DNA from: Candidatus Hydrogenedentota bacterium
Lineage (GTDB): Bacteria; Hydrogenedentota; Hydrogenedentia; Hydrogenedentales; SLHB01
Assembly: GCA_046540175.1 (NCBI GenBank)
Contig: JBKHFO010000002.1
Span: 1-48,158, forward strand
Direction: 5' to 3'
Length of the DNA stretch: 48,158 nt
Below, one piece after another: positions 3,687 through 35,526 of this stretch (position 1 is its first letter; every line of letters begins with the position of its first letter). The position numbers and the translations under genes were made by a program. A model generated the notes under the pieces. It made no database searches. It saw nothing but the letters and a program-made list of their open reading frames with translations, and had not been told where the DNA came from.

Positions 3687-4211
3687 ATGCTTAAGGACAA
3701 TACGCCCATCACCCTGTTTGGCGTCGGGAATGCCCTGCGCGGGGATGACGGGGTAGGCCTTTTGCTTGCTCGCTTGGTACGAGCGCTTTCCCCCCGCCGG
3801 TTCACCGTGCGCGAATGCACGGGCGAACCGGCGGCCTTGCTTGAGCAATGGTCCGGGCTGGCCGCGGCCATGTTGTTTGACGCCGTCCATTCCGGCGCCG
3901 CCCCAGGCGCCGTATTCCGCGTGGATGTGATCGCGAATCCCCTGCCCGATGCGTTCAAGCAGACCTCGACCCACGGCTTTGGCGTCGCGGAGGCGGTGGA
4001 GCTTTCCCGCGCATTGGGCGTCTTGCCCGCCCGGATGCTGGTCTACGGCGTCGAAGCGGCTTCGTTTGATTACGGCGCGGAGATGAGCCCGGAAGTGGCG
4101 GCCGCCATCCCGGAAGTGGTTGGGATGGCGTCGCGGGACGCCACGGCCTGGACCGGCGAACAGTTTCCCTCGGACCCGGAGACGGATTCAGCATGCACGA
4201 ATACAGTTTAG
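3687..4211 (+). CDS. hoxW: [NiFe]-hydrogenase maturation endopeptidase (HoxW/HybD/HycI family)
   Basis: N-terminal LFGVGNALRGDDGVGLLL signature, conserved DA and H residues, ~170 aa. Overlaps hypA by 19 nt. Confidence 0.8.
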   Translation: MLKDNTPITLFGVGNALRGDDGVGLLLARLVRALSPRRFTVRECTGEPAALLEQWSGLAAAMLFDAVHSGAAPGAVFRVDVIANPLPDAFKQTSTHGFGVAEAVELSRALGVLPARMLVYGVEAASFDYGAEMSPEVAAAIPEVVGMASRDATAWTGEQFPSDPETDSACTNTV

Positions 4212-4537
4212 CGCAGTCCATCGTTGACATAGCGGTGGCGGTGGCCCGGGAACATGGCGGCCAGCCCATCGAGCGCGTTAGCGTGGATATTGGCGCCATG
4301 CGGGCCGTTTGCCCCGAGCTTTTGGTGGAGGCGTTCGCTCACACGGCGGAGGACACGCTGGCCAAGGGTGCCGAGCTTGATTGGACCGAGACGCCCATGG
4401 AATTTGTGTGCGGCGAGTGTGAAGCGCGCTATACGGCCGGGGAATTGCTGGAGCCGTGCCCTCAATGCGGAGGCCATGCGGGGCGTCTCGTCAGCGGCGA
4501 CGAGTTGATGGTCCGGAGCGTGACCTTGGCTGACTGA
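4193..4537 (+). CDS. hypA: hydrogenase nickel-insertion protein HypA
   Basis: MHEYSLAQSIVD N-terminus (Ni site MHE) and Zn-finger CGECE...CPQCGG; 114 aa. Confidence 0.9.
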   Translation: MHEYSLAQSIVDIAVAVAREHGGQPIERVSVDIGAMRAVCPELLVEAFAHTAEDTLAKGAELDWTETPMEFVCGECEARYTAGELLEPCPQCGGHAGRLVSGDELMVRSVTLAD

Positions 4538-4564
4538 ATGCGGCGGAGCCGCGCGATGGGGTTA

Positions 4565-4598
4565 ACATTCCCCTTGATCCCCCTTCAGAAGGGGGAAT
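4565..4598 (+). repeat. copy 1 of a dispersed ~32-nt hairpin repeat (ACATYCCCCTTGATCCCC-TTCAnAAGGGGGAAT)
   Basis: ACATTCCCCTTGATCCCCCTTCAGAAGGGGGAAT contains the hairpin CCCCCTTC/GAAGGGGG. Near-identical copies occur at 29585-29616 (+) and 29655-29685 (inverted). Confidence 0.65.
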
Positions 4599-4634
4599 AG
4601 GACCACGGATAGACACGGATAAACACGGAAACAC
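4599..4634 (+). repeat. three tandem ~10-nt CACGGA units (gaCCACGGATA gACACGGATA aACACGGAAA)
   Basis: Read directly from the sequence. The same CACGGA core recurs at 10498-10584 and 11226-11264. Confidence 0.6.
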
Positions 4635-4796
4635 AATATTCCAAATATTAATTATTATACTAAATTAGTACAAACATAAGCTGAATTGTAAGTGGTCGCT
4701 ATTGCCGGGAAATGTTAATCCGGCGTTGTCCCAGAGTTTGGCCGCGCCGCGTCCCAGGATGTATACTGCCTCCGATGCTAGGGCTTGGTCCGCCCT

Positions 4797-4933
4797 AAAT
4801 TTGTGGGTAGTGCACCCCCCCGGCCGTCATCCCCGCGAAAGCGGGGATCCACAGGGCGTGTGTTGCTCTCCGGGATTGGGATCCCCTTCCGCGGGGATGA
4901 CGGTGGCAGCGGATAGGATTACCCACAATTTTG
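4797..4933. repeat. nested palindromic (MITE/REP-like) element in the hypA-hypB spacer
   Basis: Outer inverted repeat AAATTTGTGGGTA (4797-4809) / TACCCACAATTTT (4921-4933), 12 of 13 matching. Inner inverted pair CCGTCATCCCCGCGAAAGCGGGGATCC (4824-4850) / GGATCCCCTTCCGCGGGGATGACGG (4879-4903). Confidence 0.55.
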
Positions 4934-5026
4934 GAATGGGCCGGATGCCCGCTCCGGGAAGTAGAATCCTCATCCAAGTGTTACCCCTAAAGATGCCGTG
5001 TAGTTGTTCAAATAGGAGAGTCTGCC

Positions 5027-5692
5027 ATGGAAGTGCCCGTGGTGCAACGCGTACTGAAAGTTAACGACGAATTGGCCAACCAGGTCCGGGAACGGCTTCG
5101 GGGCGCTGGCGTTGTGGCGGTGAACATTATCAGCGCGCCGGGATCGGGTAAGACCACCCTTATCGAGACGGTGCTGCCCTTGTTGCGGGACCGTGTGCGG
5201 GTAGGGGTCATCGAGGGCGATCCCGAGACGTCGCTTGACGCCGAACGGATCTCCAAACACGATGTGCCCGTCGTGCAAATCGAGACGGCGGGCGGGTGTC
5301 ACCTCGAAGCCAACCTCGTGAATCGCGCCCTGGATTCATTTTCGTTGGAGGAGCTGGACCTGGTCATCATAGAGAACGTGGGCAATTTGGTGTGTCCGGC
5401 CGCCTTTGATCTCGGTGAATCGGCGCGGGTGGCGATAGTAAGCGTGCCCGAGGGACACGACAAACCGGCGAAATACCCCCGCTTGTTCAAGGACGTTGAC
5501 CTAGTCATTCTTAACAAGACCGATCTCTTGCCGTATATCCCCTTTGATCGTGAACTCTTCATTACGTATCTCGATAAACTTCAGCCGGGCGGTTCCCTTA
5601 TCGAGACGGCTTGTCCGCAAGGGCAGGGCATTGAGGAGTGGGCCGATTGGCTCGCCGCCGTCGCCCAGGGAGCGCCCGCGCAGAAAGCTTGA
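5027..5692 (+). CDS. hypB: hydrogenase nickel-incorporation GTPase HypB
   Basis: P-loop SAPGSGKTTLIE, ENVGNLVCP and NKTDL GTPase motifs; 221 aa; RBS AGGAGAG upstream. Confidence 0.9.
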   Translation: MEVPVVQRVLKVNDELANQVRERLRGAGVVAVNIISAPGSGKTTLIETVLPLLRDRVRVGVIEGDPETSLDAERISKHDVPVVQIETAGGCHLEANLVNRALDSFSLEELDLVIIENVGNLVCPAAFDLGESARVAIVSVPEGHDKPAKYPRLFKDVDLVILNKTDLLPYIPFDRELFITYLDKLQPGGSLIETACPQGQGIEEWADWLAAVAQGAPAQKA

Positions 5693-5704: not shown

Positions 5705-8080
5705 GTGATGACGCCCGCCCCTCAAGGCCAGCGCGCCGAAGCCGGAATGCGAATCCGGGCTGAGGTGGACGGGTGCGTCCAAGGCGTGGGGTTTAGGCCG
5801 TACGTTTACCGGCTCGCCGTGGAACTTGGTCTCGCCGGCTACGTGACCAATACGCCGGCGGGGGTCACCGTTGAGGCGGAAGGTCCCAAGACGGATGTTC
5901 AGGCGTTTCTCGACCGCCTTCCGCGCGAAAAGCCGCCCTTGGCGGAGATACGCTCGTTGGATTGGCGGGAGATTCCCCCGCAATCCAGCCCCGGTTTCGT
6001 GATTGAGAAGAGCGCGGCCGGCCCAGATCCCGTGGCGCAGATCCTCCCCGACATGGCCACCTGCCCGGACTGTCTGCGCGAAATCCTGGACCCCGGGGAT
6101 CGGCGATACCAGTATCCCTTCACCAACTGCACCCATTGCGGCCCCCGCTATACGATCATCCACGGTTTGCCCTACGACCGGCCCCGCACCTCGATGGCGG
6201 GTTTCCCCATGTGTCCGCAATGCCGGCGGGAATACGAGGACCCCATGGATCGCCGGTTCCACGCCCAACCCGTGGCCTGTCCCGCGTGCGGGCCCCACGT
6301 CCAGCTCTGGGACGGCGAAGGCCGCTGCCTGTCGGCAGAAACCGCGGCCCTGGACGAGACCGCGGAACGCATCCGGCAAGGGGCCATTGCGGCGGTGAAG
6401 GGACTCGGCGGATTTCATCTCGTGTGCGATGCGCGCGACACGGCGGCGTTGGAGCGGCTTCGTGAACGCAAGGCCCGGGAGGAAAAACCCTTCGCCGTGA
6501 TGGCGCCGCGCTGGGAGGAGTTCGCGTCAGCGTGCCGGATAGACGCCGTGGCGGTCAGCGCGCTGGAATCGCCGCAAGCCCCGATTGTCTTGGTTCCGCG
6601 CATCCCCGGCGCGGATGATGGCCTTTCCCGGCTTGTGGCGCCGGACAGCCCCGCTCTCGGGCTCATGGCGCCGTACACGCCGCTGCATCATCTGCTCCTG
6701 GCCCGGCTCGGTTTTCCCGTGGTGGCGACGAGCGGCAACCTGCGGGATGAGCCCATCTGTATCGACGAAAACGAAGCCCTGCGCCGGCTGACGGGCATCG
6801 CCGATGTATTCTTGGTGCATAACCGGCCCATCGTGCGGCCCGTGGACGATTCCGTCGTCCGCATCATCGGCGAAACGCCTGTGCTTCTCCGGCGGGCGCG
6901 CGGGTACGCCCCAGCCCCGATTAGCATCGAGCATGGCTCGGAGCATTCCGTGGTGGCCATGGGCGGCCACCTCAAGAACACGGCGGCGTTGACCATGGGC
7001 CACCGCATCATGTTGAGCCAGCACATCGGAGACCTCGAAACCCCGGAAGCGCGGGACGCCGCCGGCGCCGCCATCGCCAGTCTCCGCTGCCTCTACCGCA
7101 TTACACCGGACGTGGCCGCGTGCGACATGCATCCCGATTACGCCAGCGCCCGCTCGGCCCACGATTCCGGCCTGCCGGTGTATCCGGTGCAGCACCATCA
7201 CGCGCACATCGTAGCCTGCATGGCCGAGCACGGTCTCGAAGGCCCCGTGCTGGGCGTTTCGTGGGATGGAACCGGTTACGGACACGACGGAACCGTGTGG
7301 GGCGGGGAATTCTTGACCGCCACCGAGACGGCGTATCAACGCATAGCCGCGCTTCGGCCGTTTCCTTTGCCCGGCGGCGAGCAAGCCATGCGGGAACCCC
7401 GGCGCAGCGCGTTGGGGCTCTTGTACGCCCTGGACGGAGGCCGCCAGCCCTTGGACAAGACCGCGGCCCCTTTGGGGCAGGGCGTCTTCCGCGAACGCGA
7501 GTTGAAGGTGCTGGATGCCTGGTTGCGCCGTCACGGGGACGGGGTGTTGACCACGAGCGCCGGCCGGTTGTTTGACGCCGCCGCCTCCCTGTCGGGCTTG
7601 CGCCAGTACGCGGGCTACGAGGGCCAAGCAGCCATGGCCTTGGAAGCGGAAGCCGCCACGGAAACTGCGGAGCCGCCGCTTTATCCCATGCGTTTGCGAA
7701 CCGAACACCGTCCGGCCTGGCTGGACTGGGAGCCGCTCATCAAGGGATTGCTCGCGGAGCAGAATAGCGGGGCCGTGCGTCCTACATTGTGCCGGGCCTT
7801 CCATCGCAGCCTGGCCGACGGCGTACGCCAGGTGGCCGAATGGGCGGGCTTCGAAACCGTGTGTCTTGGCGGCGGCTGTTTTCAGAACGCCCTGTTGACC
7901 GAGTTTATCGTTGAACTGCTGACGCGCCAGGGGTTTGCCGTATACTATCCCCAGCGCATCCCCCCGAACGATGGGGGGCTCGCCCTTGGACAGGCCTGCT
8001 GCGTGTTGCGGCGCCTGTCCGTTACGTCTACAGCGCAAAAGGAGGGATCATGTGCCTTGCCGTTCCAGGTGAAGTCCTGA
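5705..8080 (+). CDS. hypF: carbamoyltransferase HypF
   Basis: Acylphosphatase domain (VQGVGFRPYVYRLA), two Zn-finger pairs (CPDCLRE...CTHCGPRYT, CPQCRRE...CPACGP), then YrdC-like and Kae1-like domains; 791 aa. The GTG at 5705 is followed immediately by ATG 5708. Confidence 0.95.
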   Translation: MMTPAPQGQRAEAGMRIRAEVDGCVQGVGFRPYVYRLAVELGLAGYVTNTPAGVTVEAEGPKTDVQAFLDRLPREKPPLAEIRSLDWREIPPQSSPGFVIEKSAAGPDPVAQILPDMATCPDCLREILDPGDRRYQYPFTNCTHCGPRYTIIHGLPYDRPRTSMAGFPMCPQCRREYEDPMDRRFHAQPVACPACGPHVQLWDGEGRCLSAETAALDETAERIRQGAIAAVKGLGGFHLVCDARDTAALERLRERKAREEKPFAVMAPRWEEFASACRIDAVAVSALESPQAPIVLVPRIPGADDGLSRLVAPDSPALGLMAPYTPLHHLLLARLGFPVVATSGNLRDEPICIDENEALRRLTGIADVFLVHNRPIVRPVDDSVVRIIGETPVLLRRARGYAPAPISIEHGSEHSVVAMGGHLKNTAALTMGHRIMLSQHIGDLETPEARDAAGAAIASLRCLYRITPDVAACDMHPDYASARSAHDSGLPVYPVQHHHAHIVACMAEHGLEGPVLGVSWDGTGYGHDGTVWGGEFLTATETAYQRIAALRPFPLPGGEQAMREPRRSALGLLYALDGGRQPLDKTAAPLGQGVFRERELKVLDAWLRRHGDGVLTTSAGRLFDAAASLSGLRQYAGYEGQAAMALEAEAATETAEPPLYPMRLRTEHRPAWLDWEPLIKGLLAEQNSGAVRPTLCRAFHRSLADGVRQVAEWAGFETVCLGGGCFQNALLTEFIVELLTRQGFAVYYPQRIPPNDGGLALGQACCVLRRLSVTSTAQKEGSCALPFQVKS

Positions 8081-8313
8081 GTATTGAACCCGGCGATTCG
8101 CTGGGCCGTAAAGCCCGGATCCAATACGGGTCCATTGTGAAGGAGGCCTCGCTGGCCCTGGCGCCCGAAGCCAAAGAAGGCGACTACGTCTTGGTTCACG
8201 CGGGCGTCGCCATCACGGTGGTGTCGCCCGAGGAAGCCGAGCGGACTTTCGCGTATCTAGACGAAATCGGGGCAATCGAGGAAGAACTGGGGGAAGAAGG
8301 TGTTGGATCATGA
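8050..8313 (+). CDS. hypC: hydrogenase assembly chaperone HypC
   Basis: Starts [10 protein letters not shown] (essential Cys2); 87 aa. Overlaps the hypF end and is coupled to hypD by a 4-nt overlap. Confidence 0.9.
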
Positions 8314-9425
8314 AGTATGTCGACGAATTCCGCGATCCCGGGGCCGCCCGGCGGCTGGCCGAACGGATCCAGACCATAACCACCCGGCCGCACACGCTCA
8401 TGGAGATTTGCGGCGGTCAAACCCACGCCATCCTACGCTTCGGGATTGACGAACTCCTTCCCCCGGAGGTCTCCCTCATCCACGGGCCCGGCTGCCCCGT
8501 CTGTGTGACGCCGACGATTCTAATCGACAAAGCCATCGCCCTTGCCCGGCGGCCGGGGATCATCATGTGCTCCTTCGGCGACATGCTGCGCGTGCCGGGC
8601 TCCGAGACCAGCCTCTACGGGGCCAAGGCCGAGGGCGCGGACGTGCGCATCGTCTATTCGCCGCTCGACGCGCTCCAACTCGCCCAGACGATGCCGGACC
8701 GGGAGGTGGTGTTTTTCGCGGTCGGATTCGAGACGACGGCGCCCGCCAATGCGTTGGCGGTCTACCAAGCCCATCAGCACGGCGTGGAGAACTTCTCGAT
8801 CTTGTCCAGCCACGTCCTAGTGCCGCCGGCCATCGAGGCGATCATGCAAGCGCCCGAATGCCGCATCCAAGGGTTTCTCGCGGCGGGCCACGTATGCACC
8901 GTGATGGGCTATCACCAATACGAGCCTCTCGCCAAGCGTTACGGGGTTCCTTTTGTCGTGACCGGGTTCGAGCCCCTCGATTTGCTCGAAGGGGTGTACC
9001 GGTGCGTGAAGCAGCTCGAGGAAGGCCGCGCGGAGGTCGAGAACGCCTACAGCCGTTGCGTGGAGCGGGAAGGCAACCCGTCGGCGCAGAAGCTGTTGGA
9101 AACCGTGTTCGAAGTCTGTGACCGGCCCTGGCGCGGGCTTGGCCCCATTCCCGCCAGCGGGCTGGCCCTGCGTCCGCCCTATGACCGCTACGACGCCGAG
9201 GCGCGCTTTACCGTGGAGACGCCCGAAGGCGGCGACGATCCCGAGTGCATGGCGGGCCAGGTGCTGCAAGGCCTCTTGAAACCTTCCGAGTGTCCCGCGT
9301 TCGGCGTGCGGTGTACGCCCACTTCGCCCTTGGGCGCGCCGATGGTCTCCGGCGAAGGGGCCTGCGCGGCCTATTACCGTTACCGGGGCCAAGCCGCGGC
9401 GGGCGCGCCAGCGGAGAAGGCTTAA
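8310..9425 (+). CDS. hypD: hydrogenase formation protein HypD
   Basis: MKYVDEFRD start, [15 protein letters not shown] and FETTAP motifs; 371 aa. Confidence 0.95.
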
Positions 9426-10483
9426 TGGACAACAACAACCCCATGCACATGAGTTGTCCGCTGCCTCATGCGCCGAACGGGCAAATCACCTTGGCCCACG
9501 GCGGAGGCGGGTCGCTGATGCACGAGCTGGTCCAGAATGTGTTCTTCCGCACCTTGGACAACCCGAAGTTGGATGGCAGCTCGGACAGCGCCGTCTTTGA
9601 AATCAACGGTCAACGCCTCGCGTTCACGACGGACTCTTTCGTGGTGCAACCCCTCGAATTCCCCGGCGGCGACATCGGTAAGTTGGCCGTGTGCGGGACT
9701 ATCAACGACTTGGCCACATCGGGCGCCCGGCCGTTGTATTTGAGCCTGGGCATGATCCTTGAAGAAGGGCTCAGCGTCGCCCTGCTCCAGCGCATTGTCC
9801 AGACTATCGCGGACACAGCTAGGGACGCGGGGGTGGAAGTGGCCACGGGCGACACAAAGGTCATCGAACGCGGCAACGGCGACGGCGTGTTCATCAACAC
9901 GGCCGGGATTGGCGTCATCGAACACGATCTCACCCTCGGGCCGCGCCAGATTCAGCCCGGCGACGCCATCCTGGTCAACGGAAGCCTGGGGCGCCACGGC
10001 ATGGCCGTCATGGCGAAACGCGAAGGGCTCGCGTTCGAGAGCGCGCTCGAAAGCGACGTGGCCCCCTTGCACGGGCTTGTGCAAGCCCTGCTCGGCGCGG
10101 GCATCACGCTGCGTTGCGCGCGCGACCTCACCCGGGGCGGCTTGGCCAGCGCGCTCAACGAAATCGCCCAAACGGCGGGCAAAACCCTGCGCGTTTCCGA
10201 GCCGGCCGTCCCCGTCGACGCGGAAGTGCGCGACGCCTGCGAAATACTCGGCTTGGATCCCCTCTATGTGGCGAACGAGGGCCGCATGGCGTTCATCGTG
10301 CCCGGCGGGGAGGCGGCTCAGGCCATGGACGTGCTCACGGGCTGGGCGGACGCCGGCATGACGCCCGCCCACATCGGAACGGTGACGGACGAACCCCGCG
10401 CCCGCGTCTTGCTGGAAAACGCCTTCGGCTCCTCCCGCATCCTCGACCTGCTCAGCGGCGAACAGCTCCCGCGGATCTGCTGA
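9425..10483 (+). CDS. hypE: carbamoyl dehydratase HypE
   Basis: In-frame ATG at 9425 overlaps the hypD stop (TAATG). AIR-synthase-like fold motifs LAHGGGG and TTDSFVV; C-terminal PRIC with the terminal Cys. The track ORF start at 9245 lies inside hypD and is rejected. Confidence 0.95.
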   Translation: MDNNNPMHMSCPLPHAPNGQITLAHGGGGSLMHELVQNVFFRTLDNPKLDGSSDSAVFEINGQRLAFTTDSFVVQPLEFPGGDIGKLAVCGTINDLATSGARPLYLSLGMILEEGLSVALLQRIVQTIADTARDAGVEVATGDTKVIERGNGDGVFINTAGIGVIEHDLTLGPRQIQPGDAILVNGSLGRHGMAVMAKREGLAFESALESDVAPLHGLVQALLGAGITLRCARDLTRGGLASALNEIAQTAGKTLRVSEPAVPVDAEVRDACEILGLDPLYVANEGRMAFIVPGGEAAQAMDVLTGWADAGMTPAHIGTVTDEPRARVLLENAFGSSRILDLLSGEQLPRIC

Positions 10484-11549: not shown

Positions 11550-12503
11550 TTACTCCGTGGTATTCGCGCCGCCGGTGGCCAGCGTTTCGGCGAGTTCCAG
11601 GGCGTCCGTGGGCCAAAGGCGTTCTGGACGCGGCCGCTTGACGCGGGGATTGTCCGCGCTGGGCCGGCAGTTGAGCACCGCCTGCTCCCATTGCGTTGGG
11701 ATGGCCTCCCGCCCGTGGACCGAGCCGAGCAGCGCGCCGCAGATGGCCGCGTTGGTGTCGGTGTCACCGCCGCACATCACCGTGTCAACGACGCCGCTCT
11801 CCAGGTCCGGCGCATCGACGAGCCGCCAGAAGGCGTTGCGGAAAGCGATGAGCACCCAGCCTTGCCGGTCAAGGAAGTCCGGCGGCGGTCCGTCCGCGGC
11901 ATTGTCCACGGTCTCCCGCAATGCCGGTTCCACTTCCAACTCCGCCGCCCATTCGCGCACGCGATCATAGACTTCACGTGGTTCGGCGCCAGTGTGGACG
12001 GCGTGGGCGATCGCCATGGCGTACAACGCGTTGGCTTGGAGGCAAATAGGGTTGACGTGCGTGATTAAGGCATCCTGCCTTGCCCACTCGGCGGTTTGGA
12101 CAAGACCATGGCGCGCGCCGAATACGCCCAAGGGGCTCACGCGCATCAGCGCGCCGTTGCTTTGGCTTTCGGGATTTGGCTGACCGCGCAACGCCGCCGA
12201 GACCGTCATGCCGGCGTCAAACGGGCCGGACGCCAGCCACCATTCGTAGGCTTCCCGCGCTTTGGCGGGGTCATATCGCCCGTTCCCGGCGAGGCAGCGC
12301 GCCAGCAGCAGCGCCATCTCCGAATCGTCCGTGGGCTGCCCCGCCAGCGTGTTCCACATACCGCCATCGGCAAGTTCGCGCACACCCTCCGGGTAATCGC
12401 GCTGGATAGCGCCGGGCGATTGAAACTCGACAAGGCTGCCCAGCGAATCGCCCGCCAGTTGGCCCAGCAAACAGCCTTGCGCGCGGCTAATCAGCGTGGT
12501 CAT
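11550..12503 (-). CDS. ADP-ribosylglycohydrolase (ARH/DraG) family protein
   Basis: GCLLGQLAGDSLGSLVEF, PTDDSEMALLLA and GGDTDTNAAICGALLGSVHG motifs. ATG 12503 is preceded by GGAAGGAA. The longer track start at 12557 is a TTG. Confidence 0.9.
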   Translation of the reverse strand: MTTLISRAQGCLLGQLAGDSLGSLVEFQSPGAIQRDYPEGVRELADGGMWNTLAGQPTDDSEMALLLARCLAGNGRYDPAKAREAYEWWLASGPFDAGMTVSAALRGQPNPESQSNGALMRVSPLGVFGARHGLVQTAEWARQDALITHVNPICLQANALYAMAIAHAVHTGAEPREVYDRVREWAAELEVEPALRETVDNAADGPPPDFLDRQGWVLIAFRNAFWRLVDAPDLESGVVDTVMCGGDTDTNAAICGALLGSVHGREAIPTQWEQAVLNCRPSADNPRVKRPRPERLWPTDALELAETLATGGANTTE

Positions 12504-12537
12504 GGAGTAGTTCCTTCCGGCGGCATGGATGGTCCCT

Positions 12538-12741
12538 CTATCGAAGCCACTCTTCAATTTCGTTCACGGCATCCTCGAACGGAATCGCTTCATCCCCCGA
12601 TGATCTGGCCTCGTCGTGGGCGCGGATGGACTCCAATTCTTCCAATTCCGCCAAGAGTTTCTTGTATTCCTCGACATCAAGCAAGACCGCCGTCCGGCGG
12701 CCGTCTTGATCAACAAGAAAGCGTGGATGCAGAGAAATCAT
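12538..12741 (-). CDS. Phd/YefM-like type II antitoxin (orphan; no recognisable toxin partner)
   Basis: MISLHPRFLVDQDGRRTAVLLDVEEYKKLLAELEELESIRAHDEA...; a small acidic protein with antitoxin-typical architecture. GAGG lies 8 nt upstream of ATG 12741. An alternative start exists at 12771. Confidence 0.6.
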   Translation of the reverse strand: MISLHPRFLVDQDGRRTAVLLDVEEYKKLLAELEELESIRAHDEARSSGDEAIPFEDAVNEIEEWLR

Positions 12742-12897
12742 GACTTCTGCCTCGTTTGTGGGTTCGGACATCCACTGATCGGGATAACAGGAACGTAATG
12801 CGTCCCCGCCTCCGCTGACAGGCTCACGGCGGTGGGGACGCAATCCGATCCCGTATCGAATGTTGAAGAGCCGTACTAGGGACTTCTTCGCGTTGTC

Positions 12898-14211
12898 TCA
12901 GACGGTATCTGGCAGTTCGTAGCCCGCGCGGCGGGGGTAATCGAGGAAGTTGTTGGCCACTTCGCTATTCGTGAAGCGTTCCGCCTCGGGATCCCACGCG
13001 AGCCGTTCGCCGGTCTCCTGATTGATCTCGCTCACCCACCGGGCGATGTTGGCGAGGTGGCATACGCTGGCCGAGCGGTGTCCCGCTTCGACATGGGCGA
13101 CGGGATCCGTTCGATCGCGTATGCAATCCAGCCAGTTCTGGTAATGGTTGGTGCTGTGATAGACCTCGACCTCGGGATCCTCGGGAAGCGCCTCTGTCAA
13201 CTCGGGCGGATCGGCCTCAAACTGGTTACGCGCCATGGTGATGGAGCCTTCCTCGCCAATGAACCGCACCCCGCTCTCGCCCGGGCCGCCTTCAAACTCC
13301 ATGACGATGTCACCCGCGTAGCGCATGAGAACCTTCGGCGCGCGCGGGCCTTGATGCCGCCCGCCTGGATCCTCGGCGGTGCTATAGAACCGCACAAAGG
13401 GCTCGCCCTCCGTCCAGATCTCAATCGGGCCGCTATCGTCCATGCCCAAGCCCCACTGGGCCATGTCGAGGCCGTGACTGCCCCAATCGGTCATGTCCCC
13501 GCCCGAGAAGGGCCGCAGCGAAACCCAGCTTGGATTCTGGCCGTTGTCAAACACACTCATGTTAAAGGGATACAATTCGACCGGACCGCACCACGTGTCC
13601 CAATTCAGGTACTCCGGAATGGGCTCGGCCGGTTGGGCGAACTCCATGGGGCTATGGTAATTCTGGGCCAAGACACGCGTCACCTTGCCGATGGACCCGT
13701 TGCGGACATGCATGCACGCCTCGTATTCGCGTTGCCCCGAACGTTGTTGGCTGCCCGTTTGGAACACGCGCTCGTACTTCTTCACTGCTTCGGCCATCAA
13801 CCGCCCTTCGGGGATAGTCAGGGAGGCGCATTTCTCGCAATAGATGTCCTTCCCGGCCTGCGCCGCGTGGATCGTGTTCAGGGCGTGCCATTGAAGGGGC
13901 GTCGCCACGATCACGGCGTCAATGTCGTCGCGATCCAAGACCTCCCGGTAATCTTCATACACCTCCGCGTCGACATCAGCCGCCACGGCTTCCGCGGCGT
14001 TGCGGTCCACGTCGGCGATGACCGCCACGTCGGCGCCGTCCATTCCGTTAAACCGCCTGGCGTGTCCGCTGCCCATGTTCCCCACGCCAAAGCTAGCGAT
14101 GACGATGCGATCATTGGCGCCGAACACCGTGCTCTTCGCCATGGTCCCCGCCACGACCGCGGCCGCGGCGCTGCTTCCCAAGAATTGCCTTCGTGTTACT
14201 TTGCCCACCAT
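12898..14211 (-). CDS. Gfo/Idh/MocA-family oxidoreductase with Tat signal peptide
   Basis: Twin-arginine leader VTRRQFLGSSAAAAVVAG and an N-terminal Rossmann segment (IASFGVGNMG); 437 aa. Confidence 0.9.
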   Translation of the reverse strand: MVGKVTRRQFLGSSAAAAVVAGTMAKSTVFGANDRIVIASFGVGNMGSGHARRFNGMDGADVAVIADVDRNAAEAVAADVDAEVYEDYREVLDRDDIDAVIVATPLQWHALNTIHAAQAGKDIYCEKCASLTIPEGRLMAEAVKKYERVFQTGSQQRSGQREYEACMHVRNGSIGKVTRVLAQNYHSPMEFAQPAEPIPEYLNWDTWCGPVELYPFNMSVFDNGQNPSWVSLRPFSGGDMTDWGSHGLDMAQWGLGMDDSGPIEIWTEGEPFVRFYSTAEDPGGRHQGPRAPKVLMRYAGDIVMEFEGGPGESGVRFIGEEGSITMARNQFEADPPELTEALPEDPEVEVYHSTNHYQNWLDCIRDRTDPVAHVEAGHRSASVCHLANIARWVSEINQETGERLAWDPEAERFTNSEVANNFLDYPRRAGYELPDTV

Positions 14212-17152: not shown

Positions 17153-17396
17153 CGCTTCCGTTTCCTTTTTGTTCGGGACGTCCATCCCTCCTCAAGCAGC
17201 CCGCCAGCTAACGGCCTGAATCATGGAGCCGCCATCCCATTTTGACAGGCCTCCATTATTGCCGCAACGGCGTCCCCAAAAGCCTGCTTCATGTTGACCA
17301 TGCTACCTCTTTGGCACAACTTTCGGAAGGTGTCCTTTCCAAGCCTTGTCCGATGAAAGCCATCATGGCGTCCATGATGTTGGTTGATACGCGCTC

Positions 17397-18434
17397 CTAT
17401 CGCTTACGGCCCTTCGTTGCCGCCCGTACCCCGGATCTCGGTTGCTCGTGAGCATGTATTTCCTTCTCTATACGTTCCGCCAGGTCCTTGAAGTCCCCGC
17501 CCGCATGCCGGGCCGCGCTAAGGTGAGAGCCGATAGCGCCATCGGCGCTTCTGAGATGAAACATGGGCTTACGGTTTTCGTGCGCCATGGCCATGAGGCT
17601 GCGGTAGTGCTTGAGCAAAGCCAGGCATTGGGGGTCGTCATTCACGCTGTAGCCGGCGTCTTCTTCCTCTCCGAGCACGTCTTGATGAAACGCGGAAGGA
17701 ATACGCTCGATCCAGCGCTCGTACGAGCGGACGGGCCGGTCCAGACGAATAGAATGCTGCATGACAATGTAGCCCAACGGATGCATCTGGCCAAGTGGCA
17801 GGGAGAGATCTGGCGCCCGGCATTCCTCAAGGCATCGCTTCCACCGGCTTCTCCATTTCCTCAAGCGAGGCCCGAGGTTGTGCAAGCCCTGCAGTGAAAA
17901 AAGATCCGCTTCGAGAGGGACCACCACATAGTCGGTGGCGAGCAGCGCCGCCCTGTTGATGGCGCCCAGGTTCGGGCCGAGATCAAGTAGAATGAGTTCG
18001 GCATCGTGGCGTTCGCCGGCAGCTTGTACGATGCGCCAAAACGCGGATGTAACTCGAAAGGCCCGTTCCTCGCCGCCCAGGCATTTGGGCCAGGCCTCCG
18101 ATAACTGATCCTCGTACTCAGATAGACTCAGATCGCCAACAACCAACGCCAACTCGGAATCAAAGATCTCTAGCGTGGGAACATTGATATCTCCCTTTCC
18201 GGTCATGATAGGCTCAACAGATCGATAAATAGTCTGAAACGAGCTACCCCCAGCCCATATCTCTTCCAAACGATCTTCCTCGAGAAAAGAAGAGGTCAGA
18301 TTGGCTTGAGGGTCTAGATCCGCAGCGACAATCCGCTTGCCCGTATCCGCATACATCCAAGCGAGATGATAAACCAACGTGGTCTTACCCACGCCTCCCT
18401 TGTTGTTAAAGAATCCAACAGTTGTAATGCTCAT
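17397..18434 (-). CDS. ParA/MinD-superfamily P-loop ATPase (345 aa)
   Basis: Deviant Walker A FFNNKGGVGKTTLVYHLA and DLDPQANLT; C-terminal third is longer than in canonical ParA. The start codon overlaps the upstream gene's stop (ATGA at 18431-18434). Confidence 0.85.
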   Translation of the reverse strand: MSITTVGFFNNKGGVGKTTLVYHLAWMYADTGKRIVAADLDPQANLTSSFLEEDRLEEIWAGGSSFQTIYRSVEPIMTGKGDINVPTLEIFDSELALVVGDLSLSEYEDQLSEAWPKCLGGEERAFRVTSAFWRIVQAAGERHDAELILLDLGPNLGAINRAALLATDYVVVPLEADLFSLQGLHNLGPRLRKWRSRWKRCLEECRAPDLSLPLGQMHPLGYIVMQHSIRLDRPVRSYERWIERIPSAFHQDVLGEEEDAGYSVNDDPQCLALLKHYRSLMAMAHENRKPMFHLRSADGAIGSHLSAARHAGGDFKDLAERIEKEIHAHEQPRSGVRAATKGRKR

Positions 18435-19624
18435 GACGGCCTCCTGAGAATCGCCAGCACATGAGACGTTTCGATTGTGAATTCAATATCGGGATTTCCG
18501 TTCTTGCTCATTTCCTCCCGAGCGATCTGGATGCCCAGACCGAAGCGCTGGACGTAACCAAGGGTTTTCAGGGCCTCGGCAAGATGGGGATTGCGATAAT
18601 CAATCATGCCGGGTTGACCGAAATTCTCCCGCGTAACCTGGCCGAAAGGCCCGCCGGGGTTTTGTATCTCGATTCGGTCACTGAACCAGAGGATCCTCAC
18701 CGGGGCGTTTGTGGCTTCATAGGTCCGATGAAGTATGGCGTTGCGCGTGATTTGCTGAAGCGCGGGCATTGGATAATCGGGGCCGCGAACCTCCGTCTTG
18801 GTCTCCGCAAAAGCCGTGAAAACCGTCCTATGGGCTTTAAGAACGTCGTCCAACTCGCTCAAAACATGATCGATTCGTCCCGAGAGAGACTTCTCATCCT
18901 TAATAGGATCGGTCAATTGATCCCCGTCGAAACGCAGAAACTGAACATACGCGCCGGGTATGTAGGTGACGGGATCATATCCAGCCACCAACATACCAAG
19001 CACCGTGGGCTGGTGTTCCGGAGATGGAGTGACAAACCGCAGGGATGCCAGTTTGTCGGGGGAAGTCCTATCATTCGATGCCAATTCGGCTTCTCCCACA
19101 GCCGAAGGCAAATAATCCGTACGGAACCAATCGAGATCCAGATCATCAAGAGTCGCGGTGGTAAGTGGGTGGAGGTCATAGGGAAGGTCCCACGCGCGCC
19201 GCTTCTCGGATAACACTCTCACTTCAGCTTCCGACGCCACCCGGTTTGAGCTTCCAACCCGGACATAAGGGGCGCCCTTGTAGCGTACCGGAGGAGTGGA
19301 TGACGGGTGAACCAGTACTACCGCGAGATCGCAACCGTTGAGTGTCTTGCGTTCCACCGATAAACGCGGCATGGGGAGTATATTCCCATCCGAACGCATA
19401 TCGGCAAGGATCCTGACGAGTTCATCGGTAATTTCTATGCCGGCGCATGTCCCGTCGTCATTTAATCCCACAAATATCGTGCCTGGTTTTCGATGGTCAT
19501 CCAGGTCATTTGCAAATGCACAAATGGCTTTTCGGATGGATTCGCTCTGTTTTTCGGAGGGCTTGCGTTCCGTAAGAGGCGACTCTATATCTGTCATTCT
19601 TCTCAAGAGTTCAGCTTCATCCAT
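18431..19624 (-). CDS. AlbA_2 (Schlafen-like) DNA/RNA-binding domain protein with C-terminal HATPase_c_4-like domain
   Basis: N-terminus LTERKPSEK...IRKAICAFANDLDDHRKPGTIFVGLNDDGTCAGI (AlbA_2 pattern). C-terminus RNAILHRTYEATNAPVRILWFSDRIEIQNPGGPFG...YRNPHLAEALKTLGYVQRFGLGI (HATPase_c_4 pattern). Confidence 0.8.
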   Translation of the reverse strand: MDEAELLRRMTDIESPLTERKPSEKQSESIRKAICAFANDLDDHRKPGTIFVGLNDDGTCAGIEITDELVRILADMRSDGNILPMPRLSVERKTLNGCDLAVVLVHPSSTPPVRYKGAPYVRVGSSNRVASEAEVRVLSEKRRAWDLPYDLHPLTTATLDDLDLDWFRTDYLPSAVGEAELASNDRTSPDKLASLRFVTPSPEHQPTVLGMLVAGYDPVTYIPGAYVQFLRFDGDQLTDPIKDEKSLSGRIDHVLSELDDVLKAHRTVFTAFAETKTEVRGPDYPMPALQQITRNAILHRTYEATNAPVRILWFSDRIEIQNPGGPFGQVTRENFGQPGMIDYRNPHLAEALKTLGYVQRFGLGIQIAREEMSKNGNPDIEFTIETSHVLAILRRPS

Positions 19625-19782
19625 CCAATTAGAATCCCTCGATTCACACTAATGCTGATTCTGTATCGCTGTTGAATATACCACATCGACGTAGGGACCG
19701 TACAAGATTAGCGGACGCGGATTTGTGAAGCGGCGCCCCCGGTGAGAGCGTAAGAACGATTGAGGTTTGTCCCAGACCCGCA

Positions 19783-19826
19783 GCGGAAACCGGAACCAGG
19801 CTCTCCAAACAAGTTCCGGTTCCCGC
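19783..19826 (-). terminator. hairpin downstream of the large esterase gene (terminator-like, no clear U-tract)
   Basis: 14-bp stem GCGGAAACCGGAAC / GTTCCGGTTCCCGC with one mismatch, 26 nt after the stop at 19852. Confidence 0.4.
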
Positions 19827-19851
19827 AGGGGGTGCGTATACCCGCCAGTAT

Positions 19852-31736: not shown

Positions 31737-34331
31737 CTATTGACTGACGCGATATGGCCGGGCCCCGCTTACAATCCGAAAGTCCCTAATGTGAGCCTTG
31801 CCTTCGCCTTGCCAAATACCGCAGCGAAACGTCACATTTCGAGCCCCTGACGGAATGGTGTGTCCTTCTTCCAACAGAAAGGATTGTCTATGCCAATCCC
31901 TTGAGCCGTACGATCGATGCAGTTCGATCCAGTAGTTCTCTCCCCTTTGATCCACACCCGATATATTTGATCGGAACACCCGGGAGGGATACTCGCCAGG
32001 CGACACGTCCTCAAGTTTCACATCCATCGCAACAGTCCACTGCTCAAACCAGGTTAGTCTGCGCTCTGGATTATCCACATACACTTTCACGTCATCCAAC
32101 CGCACATATCCTTCTTCACTCTCCCCCACTTCAACACCTAGTTGAACACCCCCCTGGCGCAACCCTTCTCTCACCGGCCATTCAATACGAAACTCCTCCT
32201 GTCCCGGCTCCATAACCTTTCTAATGGCGGCTTCTTCACTTCCCCTGCTTGGGCGAACATACAAAGCGGCCTTTACATCCTCAGTGACCGATGCGCTTAC
32301 CTCTATTTCCACCGTTACGCCCTCGTGCAGGACATCGAAATAGACATCTTTAGACACTATGGCTTTAGCCTCATCTCCCCGGACTATCGCGCTGTCCGTA
32401 TACTCGTTCTCTCCTCTAACGATTTGCTCTTCACCGCCTTTGAAGCTCCATGATGAAGGAATACCCTCCGTCCAACGCTCAAACCGGCTGTTCGATAGGG
32501 GGACTTCAAAGCGTTCAGGGAAGCGCACTCGAACTATTGCGCGCTGGTCCTCTCTCCCTTCAAAACTCACTGTACGCTTTGAAGGAGCTAGCTCGACTTT
32601 CCCCTCGGGACTCCAGGCATCCAACTCGTTTTCGATATATTCATACGACGTCACTTCATGCTGGGAAGACGCATCGGCAAAAACCACCACATCCCCGAAC
32701 TCCTCATACACAGAAAACGCTCGCTTTAGCGTCTCCTCAAACCCCTCCCCATATTCCTCTAGACTTGTCTTGAGTGTGACCAATTGCTTCGCCGCGTCAC
32801 GATCCGACGACATAACTCTCGCCAAATCTTCCTCTGTCTCTATTCGCTCTTGAAGAGGCAGTTCCGGCCAAGGCGCCCCGGGGATTTGCCGGAGATAATG
32901 GTCCACTCCCCTTTCCACCAGTAGAAAAGAGCCTCTATGTTCCGCGAACAGGAGAACATCTTCCGGATGAAGATCTTGAGCTATGAACTCCGCCGCGCCT
33001 CGCCAGTCCTGTAGCGGACGATCCTCATAGTACGCTTGCAACGCCTCCACTGCGCCATGGTACGGAATCACGCCAATGACCAATACGCCTATCATTCTGC
33101 TATATCTAAGCGCGCTCGCCGGCGCCCGCCAATACACACCAGCCCTACACCTTTTGACACAAGCGCCGCCGCAAGCGCAGAGAACGTTTAGCAGCCAAGA
33201 TACCCCCACCGCAAACCCGATGACATGAAGCGCATAGTTTCCCACAAAATAGCGGGCCGTATACCAATGAAAAGCCGTTATCTGCGTCAGCGCGAAAGGA
33301 AAGACAATCAACATCCCCAGGCAAGCTAGCCCTACATGCGGTGTATTATACGCAAGGATCACACATCCAAAGACCGATACAGTAATCATTCCCCAAAACA
33401 AGTAGGGGTCATATATGCCGCTAAGTTTCTTAACGTAACGTACATAGTCATCCAAATCTAGTGTATAGCCGCTGTCCTCGGTATCTTCTTCTTCGGTTTC
33501 GCTAAGCGATTCACTCGCGGCGAAACCCGCGAGAGGTCCTATCATAATTGTTTCGCGAAGATTCCTTCCGGTGTCTTGCATGCTATCCGTTACAAGAAAG
33601 GCGCTAAAACCGCTTGCCAAGGCTAGGGCCAAGGCTAGGCTTCGAATCGTATGACCGTGACTGTGACTCCAAATGAAGAACACGCCGGCCAATCCGGCGC
33701 TCACGGCGAAAAAGACAACCGCGAATGGAACGAAAAAGAGATGCGTCAAACAGCCCAGAAATACGGCCCCGGCAGCCCCAATATACGCGAAAAGATTGTT
33801 GGAGCAGCGCGCATAATCAACAAGAACAGCTACCAGCAACACGAAAAAGACTATATGGCTATAGTAGCGCGCCTCTTGGCTATATTCGACAAGGGACACG
33901 GATACCGCCACAAGGAGAGCCGCGAGAAGGCCTGCTCGCCAATCGGCGGCTCTACCAGCTAGAACAAACCCTAGACCAATAGAGAGGACCCCCGATATCA
34001 CGGACGGCGAGCGTAGAATCCACTCGCTATCTCCTACTTGGCGGGCAAAATGGGCAAGCACATTGATAAGAGGATAACTCGTTACGTTAAGACTGAACAG
34101 AAAAGATCCGCCGCCTCTATCGAAGGTATGCATCTCATCCGTCCATAGAGATGCGTTTAATTTGTAAATCCTAAGGCCTATACCCAGAAGCACGATAACG
34201 AAAAGCGCAACCAAGGCCAATCGCCTAGTGTTCTTGTTATCGGGTAGAAGGCGTGGATAAAGTGCTTTGGGAGTTGTACTCAAACCGGCAACCTCGCAAA
34301 GGCCAATGGGGTTAAACAAACAGCACGCCAT
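31737..34331 (-). CDS. polytopic GT-C (ArnT/PMT-like) membrane glycosyltransferase with a large soluble C-terminal domain
   Basis: The N-terminal ~430 aa carry many hydrophobic helices, with an early loop LWTDEMHT and an ArnT/PMT_2-like layout. The C-terminal ~430 aa are soluble with no motif I recognise. Noticeably lower GC than the surroundings. Confidence 0.7.
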   Translation of the reverse strand: MACCLFNPIGLCEVAGLSTTPKALYPRLLPDNKNTRRLALVALFVIVLLGIGLRIYKLNASLWTDEMHTFDRGGGSFLFSLNVTSYPLINVLAHFARQVGDSEWILRSPSVISGVLSIGLGFVLAGRAADWRAGLLAALLVAVSVSLVEYSQEARYYSHIVFFVLLVAVLVDYARCSNNLFAYIGAAGAVFLGCLTHLFFVPFAVVFFAVSAGLAGVFFIWSHSHGHTIRSLALALALASGFSAFLVTDSMQDTGRNLRETIMIGPLAGFAASESLSETEEEDTEDSGYTLDLDDYVRYVKKLSGIYDPYLFWGMITVSVFGCVILAYNTPHVGLACLGMLIVFPFALTQITAFHWYTARYFVGNYALHVIGFAVGVSWLLNVLCACGGACVKRCRAGVYWRAPASALRYSRMIGVLVIGVIPYHGAVEALQAYYEDRPLQDWRGAAEFIAQDLHPEDVLLFAEHRGSFLLVERGVDHYLRQIPGAPWPELPLQERIETEEDLARVMSSDRDAAKQLVTLKTSLEEYGEGFEETLKRAFSVYEEFGDVVVFADASSQHEVTSYEYIENELDAWSPEGKVELAPSKRTVSFEGREDQRAIVRVRFPERFEVPLSNSRFERWTEGIPSSWSFKGGEEQIVRGENEYTDSAIVRGDEAKAIVSKDVYFDVLHEGVTVEIEVSASVTEDVKAALYVRPSRGSEEAAIRKVMEPGQEEFRIEWPVREGLRQGGVQLGVEVGESEEGYVRLDDVKVYVDNPERRLTWFEQWTVAMDVKLEDVSPGEYPSRVFRSNISGVDQRGENYWIELHRSYGSRDWHRQSFLLEEGHTIPSGARNVTFRCGIWQGEGKAHIRDFRIVSGARPYRVSQ

Positions 34332-34635
34332 TTCCAGATAGTCTTGATGCTGGCGCGCATGAAGTCAGACATCTCCTTAGCGTCCTGAAGTTTAGTAGGG
34401 AAAGGTCTTGTTTCGTGCACAGCTGGACAGCCTCCCCGGGGGACGGCAGGCGCAGCCACTGGCGGGCATTGTACTGCCCCCCTATACGCGGCCTCAAGAC
34501 GCGCCCAACCCTCCACAACGCTAGGCCGGGCGGGAACTTCTCGTTCCCCGTTGGGTTACACTAACCAAAGGCGCGATGTGGATCGCGGCAAGGCTGGAAT
34601 GGCGACAACGCCGTTACAAGAAAGAGGACCATGTC

Positions 34636-35526
34636 ATGACGAAAAGCATTATAGTGGCCATTGTCACCCTATCCCTGGGCGCCATCGCAGGGACGATAGT
34701 CACCCAAACTCGTTTGAGCGGCGAAATGGAACAGCTTCGGGGGGAGCACCGGGAAAGCCTGAGACTCGCCAACGAGACCCAGGAGGCCTTGGCTTCAACG
34801 GAGCGGCGGGCCGAGCGGCTAGCCCAACAAAACACCCATCTCGAGGATCGCTTGGACCGCCTCCACGCCACACTCGAGGACGCCCAGGGCGGGGCTGGCG
34901 CGGTTGACGCGCAAGACGAAGGCGAATCCCTGGACGGAGAGGCCTTGGCTGGGGTCGAAGATGCCCGGATGGAAATGCCGCAGGGGGCAAATGCCCCCCA
35001 GCGGGAGGCCGCCATGGATTGGCGCGAGGAACTGGCTAGAGAGCGCGAAGAGGACGCCGAAGCAACCGAGGAAGAACGCGAGGCGAGACGAGAGGAGAGA
35101 CGGCAAGAGTGGGAGCAGCGCGCGCAGCAGATGCGGGATGACATGCGGGAGCGCTTGCAGGAGGCGATCCAGACCGCGGAGGATCCGCAGTCGCGTGACC
35201 GCATGACAGCCGTGGCGGAATACAGCGAATATATCATGGAACTGCGCGAGCAGATGCGCGACGCTGGTGACGACGAGCAACGTGAAGCATTGGTTGAAGA
35301 GATGCGCGAAGCCGGCCGCGAGGTGCGCAATCTTGTCGAAGAGCAGCAAGAACATAACCTGATGAACGTCGCCGAGCAATATGGCATCACCGACGAGGCG
35401 GAGGCGCGCGCGTTGATCGAGTCGCTAGACGAAGCCCGGTCCGATGGTATCTTGGGCGGCGGCCGGCGCGGCGGCATGCCCGGCGTCATGGGCCGGGGCG
35501 GCCCGGGTGGCGGCCGGGGCCGGTAA
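34636..35526 (+). CDS. membrane-anchored, highly charged coiled-coil protein with Gly/Arg-rich tail (function unknown)
   Basis: ATG 34636 preceded by AAGAGGA. N-terminal TM helix IIVAIVTLSLGAIAGTIV, long E/R/Q-rich heptad-like region, and C-terminus GGGRRGGMPGVMGRGGPGGGRGR. Confidence 0.6.
   Translation: MTKSIIVAIVTLSLGAIAGTIVTQTRLSGEMEQLRGEHRESLRLANETQEALASTERRAERLAQQNTHLEDRLDRLHATLEDAQGGAGAVDAQDEGESLDGEALAGVEDARMEMPQGANAPQREAAMDWREELAREREEDAEATEEEREARREERRQEWEQRAQQMRDDMRERLQEAIQTAEDPQSRDRMTAVAEYSEYIMELREQMRDAGDDEQREALVEEMREAGREVRNLVEEQQEHNLMNVAEQYGITDEAEARALIESLDEARSDGILGGGRRGGMPGVMGRGGPGGGRGR

Follow-up and report, generated by a model that had tools for sequence, protein, structure and literature searches.

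In animals, and as of 2025-26 also in prokaryotes, Schlafen nucleases are effectors of innate immunity; the known task of ParA/MinD ATPases is to position DNA and protein cargo. In a 48,158-nt stretch of DNA from a Candidatus Hydrogenedentota bacterium (assembly GCA_046540175.1, contig JBKHFO010000002.1, positions 1 to 48,158; hereafter the window) one member of each group is encoded in a cassette of two overlapping genes, both on the minus strand. Gene 1 encodes a protein with a Schlafen and a GHKL domain (a 'Schlatpase') and gene 2 a ParA-like ATPase.

Prokaryotic Schlafen nucleases cleave tRNA in defence (PMC13462974; bioRxiv 10.64898/2026.05.29.728809), and surveys tie Schlafen-ATPase proteins to BREX, restriction-modification and CRISPR loci. 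In RzAgo, a Schlafen-Argonaute protein, ATP-driven oligomerisation of the GHKL domain forms the active Schlafen nuclease; the same preprint describes no conserved partner for Schlafen-Argonautes (SLFN-pAgos) and leaves ParA unmentioned (bioRxiv 10.64898/2026.05.29.728809). ParA/Soj-like ATPases have been described next to HEPN proteins of the MAE_18760 family, in dyads for which a toxin-antitoxin role was predicted, the RNase being the toxin and the ATPase its antitoxin, and some MAE_18760 proteins are fused to Schlafen (Anantharaman et al., 2013, Biol Direct 8:15; PMC3710099). We found no description in the literature of a Schlafen-GHKL protein paired with a ParA-like ATPase, nor of the ParA-like and SIR2 pairs reported below, and the 2013 HEPN paper comes closest. 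We cautiously favour the reading in which the two proteins of the cassette make up a self-contained conflict module, whether of the toxin-antitoxin or of the abortive-infection/defence type, and consider this somewhat probable.

Conservation and spread of the gene pair

The two genes and their junction are located as follows.

18431..19624, minus strand: gene 1, 397-amino-acid (aa) Schlatpase with an N-terminal Schlafen/AlbA_2 nuclease domain, a middle domain and a C-terminal GHKL-type ATP-binding domain
17397..18434, minus strand: gene 2, 345-aa ParA-like ATPase of the long '3PG5-like' subfamily
18431..18445, minus strand: translational-coupling junction, with AGGAGG at 18445-18440 and the ATG of gene 2 (18434-18432) overlapping the TGA of gene 1 (18433-18431)

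The AGGAGG lies 5 nt before the ParA-like ATG, within the terminal Arg codons of gene 1. A preliminary description, made from the letters of this DNA, had noted the ATGA overlap at 18431-18434 and taken the genes for an obligate pair; the sequence agrees with the former, and comparison with other genomes supports the latter. In a collection with one genome per species at least 584 matching stretches were confirmed. Among the best 80 loci, which were examined, the ParA-like gene is directly downstream of the nuclease gene and on the same strand in 79 genomes, each from a different species. The identical 4-nt NTGA overlap is present in 69 of these 79 junctions, with AGGAG within the terminal Arg codons of gene 1. 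The description had asked whether homologs might not be syntenic elsewhere, and synteny in 79 of 80 species answers this decisively. The 80 loci span at least 10 phyla and two archaeal lineages, with 30 from Cyanobacteria, 12 from Acidobacteriota, 11 from Deltaproteobacteria/Desulfobacterota, seven from Planctomycetota, seven from Archaea (Methanothrix-type and Nitrososphaera), five from Chloroflexota and eight from others, including Nitrospirota, Elusimicrobia, Actinomycetota and Entotheonella. The cassette as a unit is conserved across hundreds of species of bacteria and archaea.

The coupling is also found when the ATPase is the starting point. In a metagenome sample that was not selected for the nuclease, a Schlatpase gene is directly upstream of about 40 of 80 ParA-like genes, nearly always with the 4-nt overlap. 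The identity matrices of the two proteins correlate (r = 0.53, versus a maximum of 0.23 in 500 label permutations). Furthermore, one 50%-identity cluster representative (P0414, 731 aa) is an in-frame fusion of Schlatpase and ParA with a linker of about 14 residues, in which the GHKL Glu is kept, and this fusion argues for physical cooperation of the two proteins. No universal third gene was found among the loci examined. The only one of the 80 loci without a ParA-like gene belongs to Candidatus Aminicenantes (L058, 8001-9763), where a gene for a 190-aa YqiA-like alpha/beta-hydrolase comes after the Schlatpase gene, again with this 4-nt overlap.

The distribution and composition of the pair point to horizontal spread. 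The pair proteins are 55-65% identical across phyla, and of the 80 reference-genome loci it is one from an archaeon that matches best (60% identity). There is no pair match among 72,556 plasmids and one in 2.9 million viral contigs, and phage records hold weak relatives only (24-27% identity). The gene-level GC content is 0.534 for gene 1 and 0.562 for gene 2, compared with 0.59-0.63 in neighbouring genes and 0.611 in the window. The lower GC noted in the preliminary description is therefore real, but the dip is smaller than in the lines sampled there. The clear signal is the GC content at third codon positions (GC3), which is 0.57 in gene 1 and 0.62 in gene 2 against 0.74-0.85 in host genes. 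This atypical GC3, with 55-60% identity across phyla and domains, bears out the horizontal acquisition that had been suggested. The closest relative (L081), in a metagenome-assembled genome of Candidatus Hydrogenedentota, has the same flanking genes and also a low GC3; its pair is 89-90% identical to that of the window and its flanks 90-95%. The pair was thus acquired before the two lineages split and has been inherited vertically since. Likeness to L081 at the DNA level covers only the cassette (17370-19643, 83% identical), and the upstream intergenic region does not align.

The Schlafen-GHKL protein

Gene 1 encodes in one polypeptide an SLFN_AlbA_2 domain (PF04326, residues 18-130, E 4.6e-15, 56.6 bits, cut-off 25.3) followed by a HATPase_c_4 domain (PF13749, residues 307-392, E 1.4e-16, 60.7 bits, cut-off 26), which is the domain order of a Schlatpase. 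These Pfam matches, and that of gene 2 given below, are all above cut-offs and agree with the AlbA_2/HATPase_c_4 and ParA-type calls of the preliminary description. With the AlphaFold2 model (pLDDT 86.9), Foldseek retrieved 3LMM (DIP2311), the nuclease domains of SLFN11, SLFN12, SLFN13 and SLFN5, and GHKL domains of histidine kinases and PDK. The protein has more than 7,900 homologs, and the best 120 are 392-410 aa long and 56-85% identical. Two motifs are central to its predicted activity.

19562..19585, minus strand: codons of the predicted Schlafen catalytic centre E14-x4-E19-x-K21, spaced as E17-D22-K24 of CbCash
18740..18754, minus strand: codons of the GHKL N-box Q291-x3-N295, with Gln at the position of the catalytic Glu of GHKL ATPases

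The tRNA nuclease CbCash has an E17-D22-K24/Mg2+ centre (PMC13462974), and the E-x4-[DE]-x-K pattern is present in gene 1. Residues were counted in 115 ParA-linked gene 1 homologs, including at each position only the sequences with a residue there. E14 is found in 103 of 103 and D40 in 107 of 107; position 19 is E in 105 and D in one, and position 21 is K in 96 and T in 10. The Schlafen nuclease of gene 1 is thus predicted to be active. Of the two roles left open for AlbA_2 in the preliminary description, nuclease or binder, a nuclease-competent Schlatpase is the better fit, as the catalytic residues are conserved.

The GHKL domain presents a different picture. The G-box residues D316, G324, G325, G328, G362 and G364 are conserved among the 115 homologs and the Mg-binding Asn of the N-box (N295) is present in 114 of them, but the catalytic Glu expected four residues before it is replaced: position 291 is Q in 103 homologs and E in 11. 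Q291 aligns with a Glu in 3LMM/DIP2311. In RzAgo the corresponding pair is E314/N318, and mutation of E314 abolishes ATP hydrolysis, not ATP binding (bioRxiv 10.64898/2026.05.29.728809). Judging from the alignment and the motif spacing, the GHKL domain of gene 1, having lost its catalytic Glu, should bind ATP and hardly hydrolyse it.

The ParA-like ATPase and its effectors

Gene 2 matches AAA_31 (PF13614, E 1.9e-27) and CbiA. Its AlphaFold2 model has a pLDDT of 89.7 and a pTM of 0.89. Over its full length the protein is most similar to PDB 3PG5 (DIP2308), both in sequence (E 7e-30) and in structure (Foldseek 1e-17, TM 0.65-0.73); the next structural matches are Soj, ParA, McdA and delta. Two of its parts are considered here.

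18381..18407, minus strand: codons of the deviant Walker A motif N10-NKGGVGKT-T18, with signature K12 and catalytic K17
17445..17882, minus strand: C-terminal extension, gene 2 residues 185-330, specific to the subfamily

The NKGGVGKT at residues 11-18 conforms to the pattern KGGxxK[ST]. The residues of Walker A (K12, K17), A' (D39, D41) and B (D151) are conserved in the family; K17, D39, D41 and D151 are invariant in the family alignment and K12 is present in at least 90% of sequences. The best 120 homologs are 327-355 aa long and come from unrelated phyla (the best 120 of each of the two proteins are 56-89% identical). The invariant residues of the C-terminal extension include W194, W198, G221, Y222, H227, W241, D298 and G299. 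Used alone as query among 1.84 billion proteins, with E<=1e-3 the extension retrieved 771 representatives of 50%-identity clusters, and with the stricter E<=1e-10 it retrieved 466. It also occurs in 3PG5 and in a second clade of ATPases, described next.

The ParA-like proteins of this sister clade and that of the window have 27% identity along their whole length (E 6e-40) and the motif FFNNKGGVGKT in common; the two types form separate ATPase clades. In all four distinct proteins of the sister clade that were looked up, a SIR2_2 gene lies immediately downstream. A metagenome scan seeded with the SIR2-linked ATPases yielded 80 loci, of which about 21 have a SIR2 gene directly downstream and about 40 a Schlatpase gene directly upstream. 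The ParA-SIR2 loci (L085-L089 and about 21 of L091-L116) mostly have a 4-nt overlap or a gap of at most 21 nt between the genes. The linked SIR2_2 proteins are 260-290 aa long and match SIR2 models from known defence systems, namely those of ThsA, LmuA and Dsr. The ParA-like + SIR2_2 unit as a whole has no full-length match in PADLOC v2. In two of these loci (L104, 3820-6900; L106, 1711-4407) the arrangement comprises three genes, with an N6/N4 DNA methylase gene that extends 22-25 nt over the start of the ParA-like gene and a SIR2 gene after the latter.

A third sub-cluster of ParA-like genes (about 8-11 genes; L118, L119, L121, L133, L135, L143 and others) has neighbours that are neither Schlatpase nor SIR2. 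Individual loci of it have a gene for an Mrr_cat endonuclease or an HTH_3 protein upstream, and Mrr, YhcG, DUF3427-helicase and N6/N4 methylase genes adjoin other members of the subfamily. In one locus (L161) the downstream gene encodes a 306-aa protein with an Rx4H motif, which may be a HEPN protein.

We tentatively raise the possibility that the long 3PG5-like ATPases, of the ParA/MinD (SIMIBI) class, are an unrecognised class of immune switches in bacteria and archaea. Effectors would differ by clade, with a Schlafen RNase upstream in one, a SIR2 NADase downstream in another and possibly HEPN in a further one, and the ATPase, bound to the nucleoid, would sense foreign DNA or perturbation of the nucleoid and license the effector. 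In the Schlafen branch the GHKL domain would have been disabled by the E to Q exchange and hydrolytic control passed to the ParA-like partner. We regard this as possible rather than probable. If it is true, a ParA-like switch of a nuclease or NADase effector would represent a new NTPase class in prokaryotic immunity or toxin-antitoxin biology.

Some members of the subfamily have no adjacent effector. The ParA-like gene is an orphan conserved across Corynebacterium species. In C. diphtheriae (L083) the ParA-like gene (4170-5279) and the AlbA_2 gene (12329-13774) are about 7 kb apart with seven unrelated genes between them. The closest solved structures for the two window proteins, 3LMM (DIP2311) and 3PG5 (DIP2308), are both from this species and had suggested a linked pair, which was rejected because of this distance and since the genes do not share an operon.

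Genomic neighbourhoods of the pair

The preliminary description expected proteins of this kind in mobile or defence neighbourhoods, which is true for some loci. Firstly, in three loci (L006, 2645-13029; L017; L030, 4002-16800) HmaA lies on one side of the pair and HmaB on the other, in some cases with HmaC after HmaB. Secondly, in L053 (234-13473) a DISARM locus contains the pair, with DrmMI and DrmA on either side. Furthermore, an HmaB/DUF1156 methylase is the immediate downstream neighbour in four genome loci, DUF1156 methylases are directly downstream of the pair in L132 and L141, and a similar helicase or DUF1156 methylase is a neighbour in L080, L015, L079 and L132/L141. A defence gene is the immediate neighbour in roughly 15-20% of genome loci; the rest, and thus most loci, lie among housekeeping genes.

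Proposed mechanism and alternative explanations

In the conflict module that we favour, the Schlafen/AlbA_2 domain would be the effector, a metal-dependent RNA endonuclease acting most likely on tRNA. By binding ATP, the GHKL domain would drive the oligomerisation required for an active Schlafen nuclease, and the translationally coupled ParA-like ATPase would act as the switch that supplies hydrolysis. As an ATP-dependent and probably DNA-associated dimer, the ParA-like protein would either hold the nuclease inactive or license it. A trigger, which may be an invader or a perturbation of the nucleoid or DNA, would change the state of the ParA-like protein and lead to RNA cleavage and growth arrest. 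Within this scheme we infer the RNase activity and its substrate, the formation of a complex, whether regulation inhibits or activates, and the trigger. The preliminary description had proposed a sensor/effector module, for defence or addiction, and this reading gains strong circumstantial support from the conserved catalytic residues, the SIR2-coupled sister clade and the embedding of some pairs in Hma and DISARM operons.

Several observations weigh against this reading. Most loci, including that of the window, lie among housekeeping genes and outside defence islands. In the lineage of the window the pair and its neighbours have been passed on vertically at one and the same rate, and the stable retention next to uvrA in cyanobacteria, described below, looks unlike the typical turnover of defence genes. 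The gene order, with the effector first, is unusual for toxin-antitoxin systems. The Corynebacterium members without an adjacent effector indicate that the ATPase may have a role of its own. Finally, the function of the family as a whole is a deduced one.

Four alternatives were considered. According to the first, the cassette is a housekeeping RNase module that responds to stress or DNA damage: the ATPase would monitor the nucleoid or DNA, and the Schlafen protein would trim tRNA or other RNA and slow growth, without a role against invaders and loosely like human SLFN11. About 10 species of cyanobacteria, belonging to several orders, have a full-length uvrA gene on the same strand as the pair, which begins 28-37 nt after it (L010, L012, L014, L020, L021, L028, L036, L044 and L052; L016 and L026 have larger gaps). 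The hosts are Nostoc, Desmonostoc, Symploca and related cyanobacteria. The spacing suggests co-transcription with uvrA and long vertical retention, and the linkage hints at a tie to DNA damage. (PADLOC matches to 'mad3/mad8' near the pair were rejected as false positives caused by UvrA.) The housekeeping surroundings of the majority of loci and the vertical inheritance within Hydrogenedentota would also fit such a module, as would the 55-65% identity across phyla, a conservation of sequence and length that is unusual for a conflict system. However, the uvrA linkage is confined to cyanobacteria, the patchy distribution across domains and the atypical GC3 indicate horizontal spread, the sister clade has defence-type SIR2 effectors as its coupled partners, and Hma or DISARM operons contain some of the pairs. 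We therefore consider this alternative unlikely. If it were correct, the parallel with human SLFN11 would be a notable one.

The second alternative shares much of its mechanism with the conflict module and differs only in the selective benefit, which counts against it as a separate explanation. It describes the cassette as a purely selfish addiction module, in which a Schlafen RNase toxin and an enzymatic ParA-like antitoxin would bring about post-segregational killing with no benefit for defence. The two-gene autonomy, the tight translational coupling, the many unrelated chromosomal sites and the horizontal spread agree with it, and so do the 2013 prediction for ParA/Soj-HEPN dyads (PMC3710099) and a PemK/MazF toxin gene that adjoins one pair locus. 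Still, the pair is absent from the 72,556 plasmids, although addiction modules flourish on plasmids. Both proteins are large, the effector is encoded by the first gene, the ATPase seems to be a stable enzyme and not a labile antitoxin, and some pairs lie within restriction-modification-like defence operons. Addiction alone thus seems improbable.

In the third alternative the pair is an effector that assists or backs up restriction-modification-like systems (Hma/DUF499, BREX-related, DISARM), and the window copy would be an orphan whose partner system has been lost. The loci with HmaA, pair and HmaB in succession, the DISARM locus and the HmaB/DUF1156 methylases immediately downstream support this, as do published surveys in which Schlafen-ATPase proteins are tied to BREX, BREX-related and restriction-modification loci. 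Such neighbours are nevertheless found in only a minority of loci (roughly 10-20%), stand-alone pairs are equally conserved, and no restriction-modification or BREX gene is present among the annotated neighbours in the window, so that an accessory role appears quite improbable.

Lastly, a partition or positioning system, in which the ParA-like ATPase moves cargo and the AlbA_2 protein is a ParB-like DNA-binding adaptor, would suit the ParA fold, the intact ATPase motifs and the ability of AlbA-type domains to bind nucleic acids, but is highly improbable, and the orphan partition-like module of the preliminary description is likewise unsupported, given no plasmid match and one locus in 2.9 million viral contigs, no parB among annotated neighbours and no centromere-like repeats other than short ones at chance level, a gene order reversed compared with par operons, strictly conserved nuclease catalytic residues, a sister clade that partners SIR2, and scores of 57 bits for NCBIfam ParA_partition (cut-off 180) and 59 bits for RepA (cut-off 348).

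Setting of the cassette in the window

The cassette is flanked by two alpha/beta-hydrolase esterase genes. The two are paralogs, as the preliminary description had stated, although distant ones with 30% identity along 285 aa (E 1e-27). Annotation of the neighbourhood covered 13 large open reading frames (ORFs) between 5.7 and 35.5 kb; smaller ORFs and the regions 1-5.7 kb and 35.5-48 kb were left out. The annotated neighbours are HypF, HypD, an ADP-ribosylglycohydrolase, an oxidoreductase, a DUF1559 prepilin-like protein, the two esterases, an aldo-keto reductase, an amylase-like protein, NrdD, an alcohol dehydrogenase and a glycosyltransferase-like protein, and one ORF (34576-35526) is without a family match. 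None of these 13 ORFs encodes a ParB, a replication protein or an integrase, which matches the earlier statement that such genes are missing nearby. No tRNA gene was found in the window and no flanking repeats or attachment sites were found around the cassette.

Two features lie upstream of gene 1.

19625..19851, minus strand: upstream intergenic region, presumed site of the pair's own promoter
19776-19833: inverted repeat with 21-nt arms that are 86% complementary, 19 nt past the stop codon of the upstream esterase gene

The inverted repeat probably serves that esterase gene as its terminator, and with this assignment the pair would be a separate transcription unit. A promoter and terminator scan gave nothing above shuffled expectation, and no match to the sigma-70 consensus was found on the minus strand upstream.

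Elsewhere in the window, a hydrogenase-maturation cluster at 5705-10483 (HypF, HypD and probably HypE) is consistent with a chromosomal Hydrogenedentota context. A second low-GC gene (31737-34331, minus strand; GC 0.52, GC3 0.525, with a strongly negative plus-strand GC skew) encodes an 864-aa protein with a weak match to the glycosyltransferase family PMT_2 and may have been acquired horizontally too.

Comparison with known systems

The preliminary description recognised no named defence system in this pairing, and PADLOC v2 leads to the same result: the pair is not among its systems, and membership of either protein was rejected as there are only partial, weak matches. The match to PDC-M28B covers gene 2 residues 4-44, which is the Walker A region (28.6 bits), and a PDC-M28A is missing. 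The pAgo match covers the Schlatpase part only (profile positions 52-431 of 1121), and the same is true for Aga. SLFN-pAgos have fused PAZ, MID and PIWI domains and a length of 1,071-1,187 aa, whereas gene 1 encodes 397 aa. An Hma or DISARM system is not present among the annotated neighbours in the window, in contrast to L006, L017, L030 and L053.

With ParABS and other type I ATPases (Soj, SopA, ParF) gene 2 shares the deviant Walker A fold and a dimerising ATPase core. Unlike these, the cassette has no ParB/parS, was not found on plasmids, carries the subfamily-specific extension and scores far below the NCBIfam partition cut-offs, and the neighbour of gene 2 is a Schlafen-GHKL protein. Cash (PMC13462974) resembles gene 1 in being a Schlafen tRNA endonuclease with an E-x4-[DE]-x-K centre, and it is inactive until it receives a signal. 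It differs by its cA4-activated Csx15 sensor, its link to type III CRISPR and the lack of GHKL and ParA; gene 1 has no Csx15 domain and there are no cas genes among the annotated neighbours.

A nuclease restrained by an ATPase that acts as scaffold or sensor, and set free by a trigger, is in outline also the principle of the two-gene systems PARIS (AriA, an ABC-type ATPase, with AriB, a Toprim tRNA nuclease) and Septu (PtuA/PtuB). We take this to be an analogy only, since the folds are unrelated: ABC/SMC-like versus SIMIBI-class ParA for the ATPase, and Toprim or HNH versus Schlafen for the nuclease. The ParA-like + SIR2_2 pairs are closer to the cassette, with which they share the long ParA-like subfamily with its C-terminal extension and the tight coupling of two genes. 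Their effector is a SIR2 protein (predicted NADase) encoded downstream of the ATPase, and their ATPases form a separate clade.

The ParA/Soj-HEPN dyads, themselves a computational prediction, likewise combine in one operon a gene for a ParA/Soj-class ATPase and an adjoining gene for an RNase-type effector. In the cassette, however, the effector consists of Schlafen and GHKL domains, and Pfam finds no HEPN domain with its Rx4-6H motif. With the Schlatpases, including RzAgo, gene 1 has in common the identical two domains in the same order, with Schlafen catalytic and GHKL ATP-binding motifs conserved. The cassette differs from these in three respects. Firstly, there is no fusion to Argonaute, NACHT, HTH or restriction-modification domains. 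Secondly, the role of sensor would fall to a separate protein, the ParA-like ATPase. Thirdly, the catalytic Glu of the GHKL domain is Gln in about 90% of the ParA-linked members.

The closest precedents for the cassette as a two-gene conflict module of ATPase and nuclease are thus the computational prediction of 2013 and the Schlatpase work of 2026. How the common stand-alone Schlafen-GHKL proteins are controlled has in this pair a testable candidate answer, namely a dedicated ParA-like partner. Being widespread (at least 584 stretches in two domains of life) and compact (about 2.2 kb), the pair is well suited to mechanistic work.

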